Part shown: piece by piece, positions 36,249 through 62,494 of the stretch
Layout of the letters: every line of letters begins with the position of its first letter
Position numbering within the stretch: the first letter of the stretch is position 1
Source of the DNA: a virus
Lineage: Duplodnaviria > Heunggongvirae > Uroviricota > Caudoviricetes
IMG/VR virus record: IMGVR_UViG_3300028805_000051
Location: 107,394-171,393 of that record
Strand: one strand, 5' to 3'
DNA: 64,000 nt
Notes under the pieces: generated by a model
Told to the model about the DNA's origin: nothing
Database searches by the model: none
What the model saw: only the letters and a program-made list of their open reading frames with translations
Made by a program: the position numbers and the translations under genes

Positions 36249-36328
36249 TGCTTTATCAGGTTAGAGAATCGCCCGTGCCTTTGTTTGCGTAAGTACGGAA
36301 GTCGTTGGTTCGAGTCCAACTAAAGCTC
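36249..36328 (+). tRNA. tRNA-like gene, about 7 nt over-length (possible small insertion); identity unresolved
   Basis: Acceptor tgcttta pairs with taaagct; T-arm is gttgg ttcgagt ccaac. Confidence 0.3.
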
Positions 36329-36354
36329 AATAAAAAATTTAAAAATGAAAAAAC

Positions 36355-36549
36355 ATGAAAGCAAAGATTTTTTGTTACATATTCAGTTTCTTAGGTATAC
36401 TGAGTATGTTTGGTATCACTGCGGAGAATGCTCCTATTTGGTGGTATATCATCTGTTTGTGTGTAACATTTTTGTGTATCATATTGGTGCATGAAATTAA
36501 TCCTAATTTCTTTCTTGAAAAAGATAGAAACGGAAATGTAATAGAGTAA
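36355..36549 (+). CDS. small membrane protein
   Basis: ORF track entry; two hydrophobic helices. Confidence 0.35.
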   Translation: MKAKIFCYIFSFLGILSMFGITAENAPIWWYIICLCVTFLCIILVHEINPNFFLEKDRNGNVIE

Positions 36550-36786
36550 AAGTGTAAACTGTGTTCATTAAGGGCTATATGATTACAGTTTTTTGCGGTT
36601 TTGTTCATTGGCCCATTTCCACATTACCGTAGAGAATATGTAGTGTGGGAACTAATTAGTTTAGCTTGTTTATAGTAAGTGAATAATAGTAACTGAAGTC
36701 TTTAAAACAAGACTGGTAAGTGATAAACCAGAATACAAGAATCACATTTTTCTAGGATAATTTAGTGACCTAGCACAAATTAAATT

Positions 36787-37029
36787 ATGGGTAAGAAAAA
36801 TCATCCCAACACTAAAGATTATGTGTTCACTCATGAGACTTCTCCTGAAATTGTGCCTGCTGGAAAACGTATTTTCATAAAGGGCAATAAACATGGCCAG
36901 ATTGAGGATGTAAATCCTCGAGAAGTTGCCGGTATTAATCTCTTTACCAAATACTATCATCGTGATCAGCGTATATACGTTGATCAGTATGTGGCCGAAG
37001 TTTCACGCCTCTGGAGAAAGGAGGCCTAA
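36787..37029 (+). CDS. small hypothetical protein
   Basis: ORF track entry. Confidence 0.4.
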   Translation: MGKKNHPNTKDYVFTHETSPEIVPAGKRIFIKGNKHGQIEDVNPREVAGINLFTKYYHRDQRIYVDQYVAEVSRLWRKEA

Positions 37030-37458
37030 ATGACAAAAGGTATAACTCCTGAACAGTTTGCCTATCGTATAAATACGTTAAAAGGGCAAACTTCTGCTAC
37101 AATCATCTATGACAAAAAACATGTCATAGAACTCCTTAAAAAGTTTGATCTTCCCTCTAATAACAATTACTTTCGAAAGTACATTGATTATGGTATGATT
37201 GTAAGAATCAAACCTGGGGAATTCAAATTCCCTGCAGCTCCTGTGCATATTTCCAAAATTGTCAATGCTCTTACTGAATTGAGAGAAAAAAGTAGAGAAT
37301 ATGCTGCTAAATCTAATGCTAAGAAACATGGATTTCTGGAAGAAGTTAAGGAGGAAAATGAAGTTCAACCTATCGAAGAACCCAATGATGAGGATAAAAT
37401 TGCAAGATGCATTGATTTTCTCAAATCAAAGGGATTTCTGATTCTCCGTCAAGTTTAA
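37030..37458 (+). CDS. hypothetical protein
   Basis: ORF track entry. Confidence 0.45.
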   Translation: MTKGITPEQFAYRINTLKGQTSATIIYDKKHVIELLKKFDLPSNNNYFRKYIDYGMIVRIKPGEFKFPAAPVHISKIVNALTELREKSREYAAKSNAKKHGFLEEVKEENEVQPIEEPNDEDKIARCIDFLKSKGFLILRQV

Positions 37459-38631
37459 TAATGAGCACAATTTTGCAATTAACTAAAAATTTCAATATTT
37501 CTTGGAAAATTGTAAAATTGTGCTTATTATATAAAACATGAATGTAAAAAATATTTTAAGTCAATTATACTAATATCTGAGGATTTTGTATAACATAAAT
37601 TGACTTGAAATCAGCCCAGTGCCTGCGGTGACTGGGGTTTGTACCGTTACCTGAGGTACACTCATTAAACTGGAGCTCTCTCGACGTCCAGATATAGGAG
37701 TAGTGATATTCGAGAGTGAGTACTATATAGGAAGAAGTCCACAGCTCTATATGGTTACAATGAGACCTTTCAGTAATGTTTAGGATTGTTGCTGGGAATA
37801 TACTTAGATAATAGCTAAGAAAGTAGGTGCGAATCCTACAGATGCCGTGGTGGTGGAATGGTAGACACGAGGGACTTTAAAGATTTACAAATGAGAGTGC
37901 TATGGCGAGAAATCCCATAGTAGAAGCACCCTAATTCGGTGAAAATCCTTTTTATAAACGTTAATGTGAGTAATTACAGTTTTGCTATCGTAGCAAAAGG
38001 GCGAATGAACTGAAAGAATAATTCGTAAAGCCTAACCCTACTTAGGGAGTAAGCTTCGAAACTTACTAAAACAGAAAGCATAGAGCTAAAAACGTTTAAC
38101 ACTAATCAATAATTGTGTAAGGATAACGCCGAGCTAAAATGAGATAATGATAGCGGAGACTAGGCAGCTATTAATAAGTTATTATTGCAATTTCTTATCG
38201 ATATTATCTCATAAATGTGTAGAGAACATAAAGGTGCAGCCTAAGTTGAAATTGTTTCTACTTGAAAATCTTGTTGATATGTACAGAACGAGAAAGTAAT
38301 ATTTCCCTTTAAAAGAGTAAAGTAAGAACACTTGCAAGAATTTCAATATGGTTAAGACATGTTCCAGACTACAAACAATGGATTCTAAACTGATTTTGGA
38401 AGGAAAGACAACTACCTCCTTATATATCAGTGGACGAGATAAGATTGTAACTTGTCATGAAATTGTGCTATGGTAACATAGTGTAGTAGGAAAATCCCTT
38501 GGACTTAGTCCGTGTGGGTTCAAGTCCCACCCGCGGTACAAAATTGCTGGATTACTGACCTGCCAGTCGGCAAGCATGGCAATTTGGACGACAAATAAAT
38601 CAATTGGCAGATTGAAATGTTTGTTGATAAA

Positions 38632-38720
38632 AACGTTATTGGTGTAATAAGGTAGCACACTGGCCCTGCTGTAGATTATACAGAGGGCCGGGGGTATTGG
38701 TTCGAGTCCAATTAACGTTC
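38632..38720 (+). ncRNA. tRNA-like RNA: 7-bp acceptor stem and T-arm, but a long 12-bp hairpin in place of a normal anticodon arm
   Basis: AACGTTA pairs with TAACGTT; T-arm attgg ttcgagt ccaat; internal hairpin GGCCCTGCTGTA-GATTA-TACAGAGGGCC. Confidence 0.35.
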
Positions 38721-38803
38721 AAAGATTGTTGTATAATACCACAAAAAATCTAGTTAATTTCTTTACTTTCATGTTTTAGATATTTTTAGTGGGACAACAT
38801 GTA

Positions 38804-38856
38804 TTCCTAGTTTGATTGTTGGAAGGCAGATACAGGTTCGACCCCTGTCTAGGAAT
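38804..38856 (+). ncRNA. mini tRNA-like element (acceptor stem plus T-arm only)
   Basis: ttcctag...ctaggaa acceptor pairing; T-arm acagg ttcgacc cctgt. Confidence 0.3.
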
Positions 38857-38882
38857 CAATTACTAACCAAAAAATTAAGGTT

Positions 38883-60976: not shown

Positions 60977-60981
60977 TAAAC

Positions 60982-61054
60982 ACGTCAGTAGTTCAATTGG
61001 TAGAATGTCAGTCTCCAAAACTGAAGGTTGTTGGTTCAAGTCCAGCCTGGCGTG
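60982..61054 (+). tRNA. tRNA-Trp(CCA)
   Basis: Anticodon loop CTCCAAA. Confidence 0.85.
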
Positions 61055-61080
61055 CAAAGTTTAATCTAAACATTAAGAAA

Positions 61081-61884
61081 ATGAATAATGGTAAAATGAA
61101 AATGAACACTCTACTTGCAGTAGTAGAGCATGAAGCTACCTCCGCTAATTCAATGGTGAGAGATTATGCAGCTTTCTTTAAGACAAAACAAGGTGCTTTT
61201 AGAGGTACTAAAAACACTTATACTGCAAAAGATGGTTTTGCTGATAAACCTGAAAAACGTGGTGTTACTAAAGTAACTACTACTGTACAAGAAAAATTGG
61301 ATTGGTTTGAGGAAAGATATATTCCTTATCTTCAAAAACTTTTCCAAGTTGAAGCTACTAATTCGAAAGGTGCTCCTCGTGTTGAGCTGAAAGTTGATGG
61401 CCATTCATTTGGCATGTTAACTGCAGCTGAACTTATGCGCCTTCGTAACATCTTAACCAGTAAAGAACTGGATACCATGTACAATAACATTCCTGTTCGT
61501 AGTGATGCTTTTGTCTGGAATCCTTGTACAGATGAAGAGTATGCTGGTCGTGAGATTTATGAATCTCCTATGATTCAGTCTACTGAAAGAACTACTACTA
61601 TTGAGGAAGTAATTCTGAAAGATCCTAATATTGATCCTCAGCATCTTCCTGCTAACTATCGTGCTACCACTACTAAAACTCAAACTGTTTTAGAGATTGG
61701 TAATTCTACACATCAGGATTTCACTGGTGAATGGACTCAGCGTAAACGTGCTGAACTCCTTCGTCGTAAGAGTGCTGTTCTCAACGCTATCACTGCAGCC
61801 TTGAAAGAGGTTAATGATGTTGAAGTTGAGAAAGAAAATCTTGATGCAGAAGCTCTTGTGAAATTTATTCACTACGGTGACTAA
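61081..61884 (+). CDS. hypothetical protein (track ORF trimmed to the ATG after tRNA-Trp)
   Basis: ORF track frame. Confidence 0.45.
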   Translation: MNNGKMKMNTLLAVVEHEATSANSMVRDYAAFFKTKQGAFRGTKNTYTAKDGFADKPEKRGVTKVTTTVQEKLDWFEERYIPYLQKLFQVEATNSKGAPRVELKVDGHSFGMLTAAELMRLRNILTSKELDTMYNNIPVRSDAFVWNPCTDEEYAGREIYESPMIQSTERTTTIEEVILKDPNIDPQHLPANYRATTTKTQTVLEIGNSTHQDFTGEWTQRKRAELLRRKSAVLNAITAALKEVNDVEVEKENLDAEALVKFIHYGD

Positions 61885-62027
61885 TTAACTCTGAAAATAT
61901 AAAAATAAAATATTCGACTCTAGCTTTAGCTTTACACAACCCTCATTGAGGGAAGCCTTATCTGATACTAGATATTCAGCATTAGCATTGTGTCGAAAGC
62001 TTTAGCTTTGAGCCTTACGCAGACTAC

Positions 62028-62161
62028 CAACATCTAATTTAAAAACAAAATGTCGCGGGTTCGAATCCCGTCTCCGCCTCAAGGTTATCAAAATTATTAA
62101 AATAAGGCGGAGTAGCTCAGTAGGAAGAGCATTTGTCGATAACCTTAGCTTAAAGATGTTG
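62028..62161 (+). ncRNA. candidate circularly permuted or split tRNA. The 3-prime half (62045-62079) lies upstream of the 5-prime half (62106-62136), and 8-nt complementary flanks sit at 62028-62035 and 62154-62161.
   Basis: The upstream piece is ACAAA atgtc gcggg ttcgaat cccgt CTCCGCC t. The downstream piece is GGCGGAG ta gctc agtaggaa gagc a TTTGT. The 7-bp acceptor and 5-bp anticodon stem are exactly complementary between the two pieces. The flank caacatct pairs with agatgttg. Confidence 0.4.
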
Positions 62162-62216
62162 AACGTATGTATGCAAATCTTGAGGCTGCACATCTAGGGC
62201 ATTTGAGTGCAGTCTC

Positions 62217-62289
62217 GGGGGTATAGCTCAGCGGTTAGAGCACAAAACAGTTAATTTTGGCGGCGGGAGTTCAAATCTCCCTACCCCCG
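62217..62289 (+). tRNA. tRNA-Asn(GUU); position 33 is A
   Basis: Anticodon loop CAGTTAA. Confidence 0.8.
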
Positions 62290-62373
62290 CTATAAATATC
62301 CTTGATTATTGCAGTGGGAATAACCCACAATGTATGACAGTTTTGGTAAGTTCTGTATAAAAACTTACAATTT

Positions 62374-62494
62374 GGAGAGATGGCGGAATGGTAAACGCAC
62401 ATGCCTTTGGAACATGCCCTAGTTATTTTTAAAACTCACTTATATTCTAGTTGTTAAGTGTTTTAGGTTCCTGGTTCGAGTCCAGGTCTCTCCA
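62374..62494 (+). tRNA. tRNA gene with an insertion of about 50 nt between the anticodon arm and the T-arm (oversize variable arm or intron); identity unresolved
   Basis: Acceptor ggagaga/tctctcc; D-arm; T-arm cctgg ttcgagt ccagg; 121 nt. Confidence 0.45.

Follow-up and report, generated by a model that had tools for sequence, protein, structure and literature searches.

Conserved RNA genes with extra sequence in the tRNA island of a TAG-recoded phage: probably three kinds, one with a putative Lak-type intron

In 2019 the tRNA genes of Lak megaphages were reported to contain short introns, for which no mechanism was given. They were called 'enigmatic', and it was proposed that one of them 'may itself encode a tRNA' (Devoto et al., 2019, PMC6784885). 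Of the genomes of alternatively coded jumbo phages, 77% are reported to contain such tRNA introns (PMC13037316). In the literature we searched there was no demonstration of splicing for any Lak-type intron. Here we have analyzed a stretch of 64,000 nucleotides (the window) that forms the terminal part of a 170-kb metagenomic phage contig. In its late genes TAG is a sense codon, and the window also encodes a tRNA(CUA). The phage is a TAG-recoded, rumen/gut relative of the Lak-like huge phages, and the window is its tRNA island.

Four loci of this island end like tRNAs while carrying extra sequence (Table 1). A first-pass annotation had credited all of them with perfect acceptor, D and T arms and had suggested one shared mechanism for the extra nucleotides. 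The acceptor and T arm are there in the four cases, the D arm only at 42182-42321 and 62374-62494, and instead of a single mechanism we find three kinds of RNA, plus a group-I-like insertion (37878-38490) in another gene. We regard it as highly probable that the four loci are functional, conserved RNA genes of these three kinds. The earlier opinion that they are not decaying genes holds, all four being conserved above their flanks with compensatory substitutions. Comparison with related phages, which had been proposed as a check, revealed two other phages whose tRNA-Asn is interrupted at the same position and diverged orthologues of each of the other three in other contigs. An assembly artefact was rejected for all four, given these orthologues and, for 42182-42321, identical copies in three further independent assemblies.

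Table 1. Features of the window discussed in the text (positions are those of the window)
Feature	Positions	Strand	Basis or details
80-nt tRNA-like RNA	36249-36328	+	acceptor (U1-U72 mismatch + 6 bp), T arm 36304-36320
tRNA-Leu(UAA) with 613-nt group-I-like intron 37878-38490 between U34 and A35	37844-38539	+	uninterrupted L073 orthologue
tRNA-Asn(GUU), exon 1	42182-42217	+	acceptor 5' strand, D arm, anticodon stem 5' strand, loop 32-35 CUGU
Putative Lak-type insert, 66 nt, between U35 and U36	42218-42283	+	excision leaves loop CUGUUAA
tRNA-Asn(GUU), exon 2	42284-42321	+	loop UAA, anticodon stem 3' strand, variable loop, T arm, acceptor 3' strand, discriminator G
tRNA(CAU) with 80-nt Lak-type insert 54534-54613 between U36 and A37	54499-54651	+	uninterrupted orthologues
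170-nt structured RNA, tRNA-like ends, branched 138-nt core	58032-58201	+	acceptor, T arm, orthologues
Gln-like tRNA, anticodon UUG, C31-A39 mismatch, giant variable arm	62374-62494	+	Rfam tRNA 51.0 bits
Variable arm, 50 nt	62418-62467	+	distal-stem covariation, invariant motifs in three variants

ARAGORN missed all four loci and the interrupted tRNA(CAU), and Rfam missed the latter together with 58032-58201 and 36249-36328 (no match to either of these two at E<=1). Standard tRNA finders overlook such genes, and therefore analyses of codon supply or recoding undercount the RNAs of such phages. The bit scores given here come from the Rfam tRNA model (RF00005, gathering score 29 bits) or from R1, a model derived from the tRNAs of this phage group. 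The discriminator is followed by C and then A or U in 24 of the 24 ordinary tRNAs checked and in five odd loci; as for every island tRNA, a C lies directly 3' of position 42321.

Judging from its sequence, 42182-42321 is a tRNA-Asn(GUU) whose anticodon loop is broken by an insert from the tRNA intron family of the Lak megaphages. The Rfam tRNA model matches it end to end (56.5 bits) with 69 extra nucleotides in the anticodon loop, and ARAGORN in its intron mode reads it as Asn(GUU) with a 66-nt intron. The exons align with uninterrupted Asn tRNAs, the cleaned loop is the canonical 7-nt Asn loop and the predicted exon-exon junction is GACTGT joined to TAATCAAG. The first-pass annotation had correctly seen an insert in or next to the anticodon loop and two alternative 3' partners of the anticodon stem, which are the UCAAG at 42248-42252 and that at 42287-42291. 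From its 5' end the insert consists of AUA, a hairpin CUGG-GUAGUU-CCAG (42221-42234), a 17-nt linker, a 13-bp hairpin (42252-42281) and AC, the hairpins being taken from the MFE fold. The loop of the 5' hairpin is not A-rich, as it is in the other nine members of the family, and a T-loop was absent from the insert when tested for, the second hairpin being a plain one, capped by a GUGA loop and followed by 2 nt. The same tRNA, the same U35/U36 site and the same start (AUAC plus hairpin) are found at positions 3240-3380 of contig L005 and in the 'Tyr GTA' gene of Lak A1, which by alignment is Asn GUU. A group I intron, which would have about 200 nt or more, a P3-P9 core, a U.G pair at its 5' splice site and G as its last nucleotide, was rejected here (66 nt, terminal C), and Rfam introns gave no match to the locus at E<=1.

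The insert of tRNA(CAU) contains a stem of 8 bp that resembles an acceptor, a hairpin, and another hairpin resembling a T arm, and this embedded T-loop module ends 1 nt before the 3' exon. The gene was seen in three assemblies; its predicted junction is GGCTCAT joined to AACCTTG, and its uninterrupted orthologues (L004, 3421-3493, minus strand; L003, 7291-7362) show compensatory changes in the stems. Ten Lak-type introns follow one plan: NUA, a hairpin of 3-5 bp with an A-rich loop, an A/U linker and an embedded minihelix made of an acceptor-like stem and a T arm. Comparison of the ten copies indicates that the last base pair of the minihelix is followed by one nucleotide, usually C, and then by the 3' exon, so recreating the island context N-C-(A/U)-A. 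Pairing is complete in the 5' hairpins and the inner stems of 10/10, with differing sequences, and excision of each insert (n=10) gives the canonical 7-nt anticodon loop of that isoacceptor. The T-loop is kept in nine members and lost in 42182-42321; the inner stacks have mostly 13 bp where 12 would be canonical, and the inner module has a middle that varies between 24 and 110 nt. The shared plan and the rule of a minihelix plus one nucleotide before the 3' exon are our own reading of the sequences in PMC6784885, absent from that paper. At 62374-62494, 58032-58201 and 36249-36328 we found no anticodon-loop insert whose removal restores the loop, the extra sequence lying elsewhere or the RNA having no definable anticodon loop.

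We infer from this anatomy that tRNA end-processing enzymes set the 3' splice site of the Lak-type introns. The intron would be taken out of the RNA after recognition of its minihelix by the ordinary end-trimming machinery of tRNAs, with RNase P acting on the 5' side and an RNase Z-like cut on the 3' side, the latter fixing the 3' splice site behind the C and not directly behind the discriminator. This predicted position of the cut, like the inner stacks of mostly 13 bp, speaks against the model. A second nuclease would clear the short 5' module, and the tRNA halves would be joined by an RNA ligase, either encoded elsewhere by the phage or provided by the host. Candidates for the ligase or the nuclease were absent from the 33-64 kb portion of the window, and the cuts of RNase P and RNase Z alone leave the 5' splice site unexplained. 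The insert of 42182-42321 lacks the T-loop, and therefore the minihelix model predicts poor or no processing of this gene, which the intact tRNA-Asn at 62217-62290 would make dispensable. This processing mechanism is offered tentatively, as a hypothesis that may well prove wrong.

The Rfam tRNA model covers the Gln-like tRNA over its whole length, with about 50 extra nucleotides in the variable region, so that the insert reported earlier between the anticodon arm and the T arm is confirmed as a 50-nt variable arm. The arm has a CCU/AGG base, an internal loop with the invariant CUAGUUAUU, a helix AAA(A)/UUU(U) and a 6-bp distal stem, CACUUA/UAAGUG, capped by an invariant 12-nt loop, UAUUCUAGUUGU (62443-62454). 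Against the two orthologues (L071, 2992-3110, minus strand; L046, 7661-7783), 15 of the 32 pairs of the gene are changed on both sides and 97.9% of cells are paired. The distal stem has both sides changed in 4/6 pairs, the other variants being CGGCUA/UAGUCG and CGUUCUA/UAGAGCG, and the motifs of the terminal and internal loops are identical in 3/3 variants. By this pattern the extra sequence reads as an enlarged arm, not an intron; introns and enlarged arms, the two options considered at the outset, thus both occur, in different genes. The invariant loop motifs suggest sequence-specific recognition, and the arm would be retained in the mature RNA as the element recognised. The anticodon loop varies (CUUUGGA, AUAUGGA and an 8-nt loop in the three variants), so this RNA may not decode at all. 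Long covarying variable arms are also found in the Cys and CAU tRNAs across relatives, and 62374-62494 is the extreme of a lineage habit of long variable arms on class I tRNAs.

We read the remaining two loci as acceptor/T-arm minihelices closing non-tRNA cores, not as interrupted tRNAs. In 58032-58201 the acceptor (58032-58038/58194-58200, GGAACAT/ATGTTCC) has 7 bp, all Watson-Crick, with discriminator A, and the T arm (58177-58193, TCTGG-TTCGAAT-CCAGA) is perfect. No D arm or anticodon arm could be detected, and the 12.5 bits given by R1 come from the acceptor and T arm only. It is thus not demonstrably a tRNA with an insertion between D-region and T arm, as had been claimed. The core includes an invariant 46-nt block (58113-58158). 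The orthologue in L071 (7498-7668, minus strand) is 94% identical over flanks of 78-91%, another is found in L075 (8767-8947), and 7 pairs are preserved via double changes among orthologues. Likewise, the small insertion attributed to 36249-36328 could not be demonstrated: the 28.2 bits of R1 derive only from the acceptor stem, variable region and T arm, the 41-nt middle being skipped. Its interior has a weak 4-bp 'D' hairpin and, at the position of the anticodon arm, a 6-bp stem closing a loop of 14 nt. Of its 80 positions, 4 are changed in the orthologue from L073, and one of these changes gives back a U1-A72 pair; the flanks are only 75-82% identical. The minihelix of both RNAs is probably a substrate for tRNA processing, and their cores would be non-decoding.

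A fourth kind of insertion in the window, and a mobile one, is the group-I-like intron of tRNA-Leu(UAA), absent from the orthologue at L073 6229-6313. Its 5' splice site has a U.G pair and its last nucleotide is G; Rfam gave no intron call on it. A homologue lies in tRNA-Ser(UGA) of L073, and the copy in L082 carries an HNH ORF.

We consider the explanation as a whole, three RNA kinds together with the intron processing route, slightly better than an even bet. A different possibility is that the insert-bearing RNAs stay unspliced and act at full length, for example as decoys that draw off host anticodon nucleases or other defences directed at tRNAs, or as ligands of the TROVE/vWA protein encoded in the island. 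The tRNA islands of this phage group do keep a DUF2828/DUF7788 protein (Ro-like TROVE/vWA, 43444-44757 in the window), and the window has a YrlA-like permuted tRNA-like RNA (62029-62163). A usable anticodon loop is missing from 58032-58201, 36249-36328 and a further tRNA-like RNA at 38632-38720, the anticodon arm of 62374-62494 evolves fast over a fixed body, and our search of the window gave no splicing enzyme. Against this, the inserts sit at exact positions, every Lak-type excision yields the textbook 7-nt loop of the isoacceptor, and the cloverleaf pairing of the exons is kept by compensatory change relative to uninterrupted orthologues, all of which is expected of a gene selected for its spliced product. 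We take the unspliced state to be unlikely. Still more so are archaeal/eukaryal bulge-helix-bulge introns, cut by the splicing endonuclease, which we judge very improbable. Archaeal tRNA genes are diverse, with insertions at several positions and permuted genes, and the insertions at several tRNA positions and the permuted RNA of this island resemble them. However, on inspection the required 4-bp helix cannot form in 42182-42321 or 54499-54651, and two 3-nt bulges flanking it could not accommodate their splice sites; such introns were rejected there. Besides, the tRNA-Tyr (50602-50686) is class II and of bacterial type, no tRNA_int_endo domain was found among scanned or pre-annotated ORFs, and Lak hosts are Prevotella.

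It is also conceivable, with low probability, that the short inserts belong to a new class of RNAs that cleave or splice themselves, the 5' hairpin and the tRNA-like module folding into a protein-free ribozyme that would cut, and might also join, at the splice sites. The covarying architecture, the conserved single-stranded A-rich segments and the group-I-like intron in the same island would fit, as would the theta ribozymes, small ribozymes that gut phages place beside tRNAs (10.1101/2023.06.13.544163). But the inserts (66-141 nt) are far smaller than group I introns, end in C and not G, and show no P1-type pairing; Rfam ribozyme families, even at permissive thresholds, gave no match to 42182-42321 or 54499-54651, and the variable middle of the inner module disfavours a compact catalytic core. 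Slightly less credible still is the view that the inserts arose recently as junk or belong to genes in decay, left over from recombination at tRNA genes and tolerated through other tRNA copies. The missing T-loop of 42182-42321, the intact tRNA-Asn, a truncated tRNA fragment at 42122-42170 and the lack of the block Lys-HNH-truncated tRNA-Asn in the close relative L073 speak for it. Decay is already largely contradicted by the covarying stems, by exons that are still perfect, by the conservation of 58032-58201 and 36249-36328 above their flanks, and by the persistence of the tRNA-Asn/intron pairing in phages with DUF2828 proteins only 53% identical and in Lak phages.

The window and its relatives supply an intron anatomy and a 3' splice-site rule that can be tested with standard enzymes. 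The same phages elaborate their tRNAs in other ways, with variable arms that are giant and conserved and with structured RNAs that end like tRNAs. A broader version, in which Lak-type inserts are introns of a third mechanistic kind whose own minihelix recruits tRNA end-processing enzymes before ligation and the free-standing 58032-58201 and 36249-36328 use the same handle for the maturation of non-tRNA cargo, is rather doubtful; if true, it would amount to protein-dependent tRNA splicing in bacteria and phages, distinct from group I self-splicing and from the archaeal/eukaryal endonuclease.

Among known systems, the group I introns of tRNA anticodon loops (classically tRNA-Leu UAA) are mobile and missing from orthologous genes, which fits 37878-38490; the four loci differ from them in being too short, in having no terminal G or P1 pairing and in placing the extra sequence partly outside the anticodon loop. 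The class II tRNAs (Leu, Ser, bacterial Tyr, Sec) have, like 62374-62494, a stem-loop between anticodon arm and T arm, which in them measures about 13-21 nt versus 50 nt here. The phage gene retains all other tRNA features with, unlike them, a Gln-type anticodon; it was rejected as class II, the arm being present but the anticodon UUG (AUG in L071). The topology of 58032-58201 is that of the tRNA-like domain of tmRNA (acceptor, unpaired D-loop analogue, long helix abutting the T arm), with A3-U70 in place of G3-U70 and no tag frame or pseudoknots recognised; with this pair, and no tmRNA call from ARAGORN or Rfam, tmRNA was rejected for this locus. A separate tmRNA-like element lies at 51105-51292. 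In the t-elements of plant mitochondria and the mascRNA of MALAT1, an acceptor stem with a T arm but no working anticodon arm lies inside a longer transcript and is a target of RNase P and RNase Z. The inner intron modules, 36249-36328 and 58032-58201 share this anatomy and may be cleaved likewise; to our knowledge such signals are undescribed in bacteria or phages, or inside the anticodon loop of another tRNA. Turning to the Lak megaphage introns (PMC6784885), they come from a 540-kb genome versus the 170-kb rumen-type contig studied here, and they have a T-arm module where 42182-42321 has its plain hairpin. They resemble our inserts in being anticodon-loop insertions of 65-141 nt, in TAG-recoded gut phages and with no Rfam match, and the embedded tRNA-like module is shared with 54499-54651.

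The four tRNA-like loci with large insertions proved to differ in kind. The first-pass annotation had credited all of them with perfect acceptor, D and T arms and had suggested one shared mechanism, either tRNA introns or enlarged arms, rather than decay. Acceptor and T arm are present at every locus. A perfect D arm is limited to 42182-42321 and 62374-62494, because 36249-36328 and 58032-58201 obtain their model scores without D or anticodon arms. In the same way, the full cloverleaf plus insert holds for the first pair, which fit the Rfam tRNA model end to end (56.5 and 51.0 bits, respectively), and fails for the second. 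Both introns and enlarged arms exist here, as an intron-type insert in 42182-42321 and a covarying enlarged arm in 62374-62494, and a single mechanism is not supported. Decay is contradicted by conservation above that of the flanks and by compensatory changes.

Features of the window with their coordinates and, for interrupted tRNAs, the exon junctions predicted after excision
Feature	Position	Strand	Detail
tRNA-Asn(GUU), interrupted	42182-42321		junction TTGACTGT / TAATCAAGG
tRNA(CAU), interrupted	54499-54651		junction AAGGCTCAT / AACCTTGAG
Group-I-like intron, 613 nt	37878-38490		in tRNA-Leu(UAA) 37844-38539, U34/A35 site
Class I tRNA-Asp	40273-40359		variable arm in the 13-16 nt range
Class I tRNA-Lys	41332-41418		variable arm in the 13-16 nt range
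Class I tRNA(CAU)	49531-49619		variable arm in the 13-16 nt range
Class I tRNA-Cys	59664-59749		variable arm in the 13-16 nt range
tRNA, anticodon CUA	30117-30188	-	ARAGORN; near late-gene region

The insertion of 42182-42321 had been placed in or next to the anticodon loop, and the Rfam tRNA model puts 69 extra nt in that loop. ARAGORN in intron mode reads the gene as Asn(GUU) with a 66-nt insert. Only one excision, between U35 and U36, regains the usual loop CUGUUAA, and three uninterrupted Asn tRNAs align contiguously across that split site. Devoto et al. (2019) described 'enigmatic' introns in the tRNAs of Lak megaphages, one of which 'may itself encode a tRNA', and gave their sequences in Table S6 (PMC6784885). 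The gene listed there as 'Tyr GTA' aligns with 42182-42321 and with positions 3240-3380 of the related phage contig L005. All three are Asn(GUU) with an identical split site and inserts that open with AUAC and a hairpin. The DUF2828 protein of L005 is 53% identical to that of the window. The interrupted tRNA-Asn is preceded, at a distance of 70 nt, by an HNH endonuclease gene (41518-42111). At 42122-42170, another tRNA fragment or minihelix, an acceptor 5' strand and D arm run straight into a T arm, and the 3' strand that would match is absent. In another related contig, L073, from a close relative, a PD-(D/E)XK-like gene (9262-9741) stands where the entire Lys-HNH-fragment-Asn block is missing; its island also holds a GIY-YIG gene.

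The tRNA(CAU) at 54499-54651, missed by Rfam and by ARAGORN in default mode, has an 80-nt Lak-type insert exactly between U36 and A37. Its orthologues in two related contigs, L003 and L004, are uninterrupted, with compensatory differences in the anticodon and T stems, and near-identical strains retain the insert. Segmentation of ten introns, of which Lak phages supplied five, L005 three and the window two, revealed a common plan, in which NUA is followed by a hairpin of 3-5 bp, an A/U-rich linker, an inner module and the 3' exon. The 5' hairpin stems differ in sequence between copies with the pairing always kept, and nine of the ten loops are rich in A. In the inner module, 24-110 nt are surrounded by an acceptor-like stem (6-9 bp, completely paired in every copy) and end in a T arm bearing a UUCGANU-type loop (9/10). 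By our own count the acceptor-like stem and the T stem together make a stack of about 13 bp in the majority of copies. The copy at 42182-42321 departs from the plan, with a plain hairpin of 13 bp and a tail of 2 nt as its inner module. A single nucleotide, C in eight copies, stands between inner module and 3' exon.

The inner module and 3' exon show the same C context as is found downstream of ordinary island tRNA genes. There, the post-discriminator nucleotide is C at all 29 loci (24 ordinary tRNA genes checked and five odd loci), with AA or UA usually next (CAA or CUA), and CCA is gene-encoded only once among them. This C-(A/U)-A context suggests a shared 3'-end processing signal. Since the inner module and 3' exon copy the tRNA 3' context, we infer that the enzyme trimming ordinary tRNA 3' ends would also fix the 3' splice site of the Lak-type introns. 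This accounts for the 3' splice site only, and for neither the 5' cut nor ligation. A bulge-helix-bulge intron can be rejected on inspection, as the splice sites of 42182-42321 and 54499-54651 cannot form the motif, and Rfam detected no ribozyme in either insert. At permissive thresholds (36-43 kb, 50.9-54.7 kb and 57-64 kb) its models for ribozymes, introns and other families gave no match in the inserts. We found no candidate processing enzyme gene within 33-64 kb and no mechanism for Lak-type tRNA introns in the literature searched. Our own descriptor for these introns was too strict and missed known cases. Besides, the anticodon arm of a tRNA-like gene at 38632-38720 is a rod of about 14 bp with a 5-nt loop (fold z-score -4.6), and the rod includes UAUACAG, the motif opening Lak-type introns.

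The intron of tRNA-Leu(UAA) follows U34 and has a terminal G, and a P1 helix is possible in which the splice site lies at a U.G pair. Its L073 orthologue (6229-6313) is uninterrupted. A homologous intron is found in the tRNA-Ser(UGA) of L073 (14734-15361), the window counterpart of which is intact, and the version in the related contig L082 (634-1491) carries an HNH ORF. Rfam 15 recognised no group I family in the 613 nt. The intron shows group I behaviour. With the Lak-type inserts, at least two kinds of intron, unrelated to each other, thus occur in the island.

For 62374-62494 an insert of about 50 nt had been annotated between anticodon arm and T arm, and Rfam places about 50 extra nt there, in the variable region. 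We aligned this RNA with its orthologues in two related contigs, L046 (neighbouring protein 67% identical) and L071 (DNA 87-93% identical). Across the three aligned sequences 97.9% of cells are paired, and both sides have changed in 15 of the 32 pairs, among them four of six in the distal variable-arm stem and four of five in the T stem; neither shuffles nor slid registers came near the observed pairing. The 12-nt arm loop (UAUUCUAGUUGU) and an internal-loop motif of the arm (CCUAGUUAUU) are invariant in the three orthologues. ARAGORN reads the gene as Pro(UGG) with a 37-nt intron, a reading rejected because the alignment supports only the CAUG/CAUG stem register. The comparison thus indicates that the insert is an enlarged arm and not an intron. 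The anticodon stem is kept, and because the anticodon loop differs among the three variants (CUUUGGA, AUAUGGA and one of 8 nt) and L071 also encodes an ordinary tRNA-Gln(UUG), decoding by this RNA is uncertain. Long variable arms are found repeatedly on class I tRNAs (Cys and CAU, and in the window also Asp and Lys), with covariation among relatives in the Cys and CAU arms, and the 50-nt arm is the most extreme form of this lineage trait. The L073 orthologue of the long-armed CAU tRNA has the anticodon UAU, which suggests that the one in the window is of Ile2 type. An exact-pattern scan of IMG/VR with the arm loop motif of 62374-62494 gave mostly chance 16-mer matches.

Neither 58032-58201 nor 36249-36328 can be read as a tRNA with an insert, and both went undetected by ARAGORN and by Rfam at E<=1. 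When we scanned for T arms closed by an acceptor stem, a perfect T arm was seen in both, with a closure by 7 bp, all Watson-Crick, in the former and by 6 bp and a U-U mismatch in the latter. With a tRNA covariance model built on 25 ordinary tRNAs of this phage group, 36249-36328 scored 28.2 bits, solely from acceptor, variable region and T arm, the D and anticodon arms being replaced by 41 nt. A tRNA with one or two introns was rejected for 58032-58201 because no D or anticodon arm can be placed and the same model gives 12.5 bits. The L071 copy of 58032-58201 is 94% identical (flanks 78-91%), with all differences unpaired or keeping the pairing, including one U-A to C-G exchange. A distant copy in the related contig L075 (8767-8947) has a 46-nt block unchanged and compensatory change in acceptor, T stem and two long helices, with double changes in seven pairs. 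Only 4 of 80 positions differ between 36249-36328 and its L073 orthologue, two of them within the 14-nt loop and another re-forming the U1-A72 pair; the flanks contain indels and reach 75-82% identity. Conservation above the flanks and changes that keep pairing argue that both loci are under selection as RNAs, and we classify them as tRNA-ended RNAs. An exact-pattern scan with the invariant core of 58032-58201 gave no matches, and the SPFH gene beside it led to one viral locus, where synteny ends at the end of the gene. At 38783-38856, a further tRNA fragment or minihelix, a T arm has a G.U-rich acceptor closure that is possibly due to chance.

Other tRNA-like RNAs were observed. At 62029-62163 lies a permuted form. 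It opens with the T arm and the 3' strand of the acceptor and, after a loop, continues with the 5' strand of the acceptor and the D arm; a long stem formed by the flanks closes the whole. Rfam YrlA (Y RNA-like) gives it 35.5 bits, below the gathering score of 69, and it is kept upstream of tRNA-Asn in relatives (L046 6938-7290, with about 270 nt in the closing loop, and L075 13110-13221). The same phage encodes this YrlA-like RNA and the DUF2828/DUF7788 protein (43444-44757), which we take to be TROVE-like and which has relatives in many huge-phage contigs, up to 553 kb. A compact tmRNA-like element at 51105-51292 combines G3-U70 and a T arm with a 3' part that fits the tmRNA consensus ACUAAGC-UGUA (partial Rfam match, 19.5 bits). 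It is conserved in L073 with 78% identity; ARAGORN made no call and we saw no convincing tag frame. A tRNA-Ile(GAU)-like RNA at 51456-51532, which lacks a D arm but has the canonical loop CUGAUAA and a variable region of 18 nt, reached 32.8 bits with Rfam tRNA under lax filters only and was missed by ARAGORN. In the related contig L019 an 81-nt RNA (12827-12907) with G3-U70, T arm and encoded CCA scores 48.5 bits against Rfam tmRNA with the entire middle absent, a bare tmRNA-type tRNA-like domain.

The window is the final 64 kb of JGI contig Ga0310691_10000097 (170.3 kb), and megablast found no close relative among INPHARED phages, only a tRNA-sized match. ARAGORN detected 27 tRNA genes, nearly all on the + strand at 38.6-63 kb and including an 85-nt tRNA-Tyr of bacterial class II form, and Rfam detected 26. 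The many chimeras of neighbouring tRNAs from the long-intron overlap mode of ARAGORN were spurious and set aside. Gene order is strongly mosaic across relatives. Taking TAG as sense almost doubles the summed length of ORFs of at least 200 aa, a gain confined to 8.7-29.5 kb. This late-gene region (8700-29560) reads TAG as sense; in the tRNA island (36-64 kb) most ORFs stay intact with the standard code.

Compared with known systems, the topology of 58032-58201 resembles the tRNA-like domain of tmRNA, but A3-U70 and the lack of a tmRNA call set it apart. The giant arm of 62374-62494 and the tRNA-ended RNAs 58032-58201 and 36249-36328 appear previously undescribed, and the anticodon-loop insert of 42182-42321 adds a new member to a published family that was reported as unexplained.
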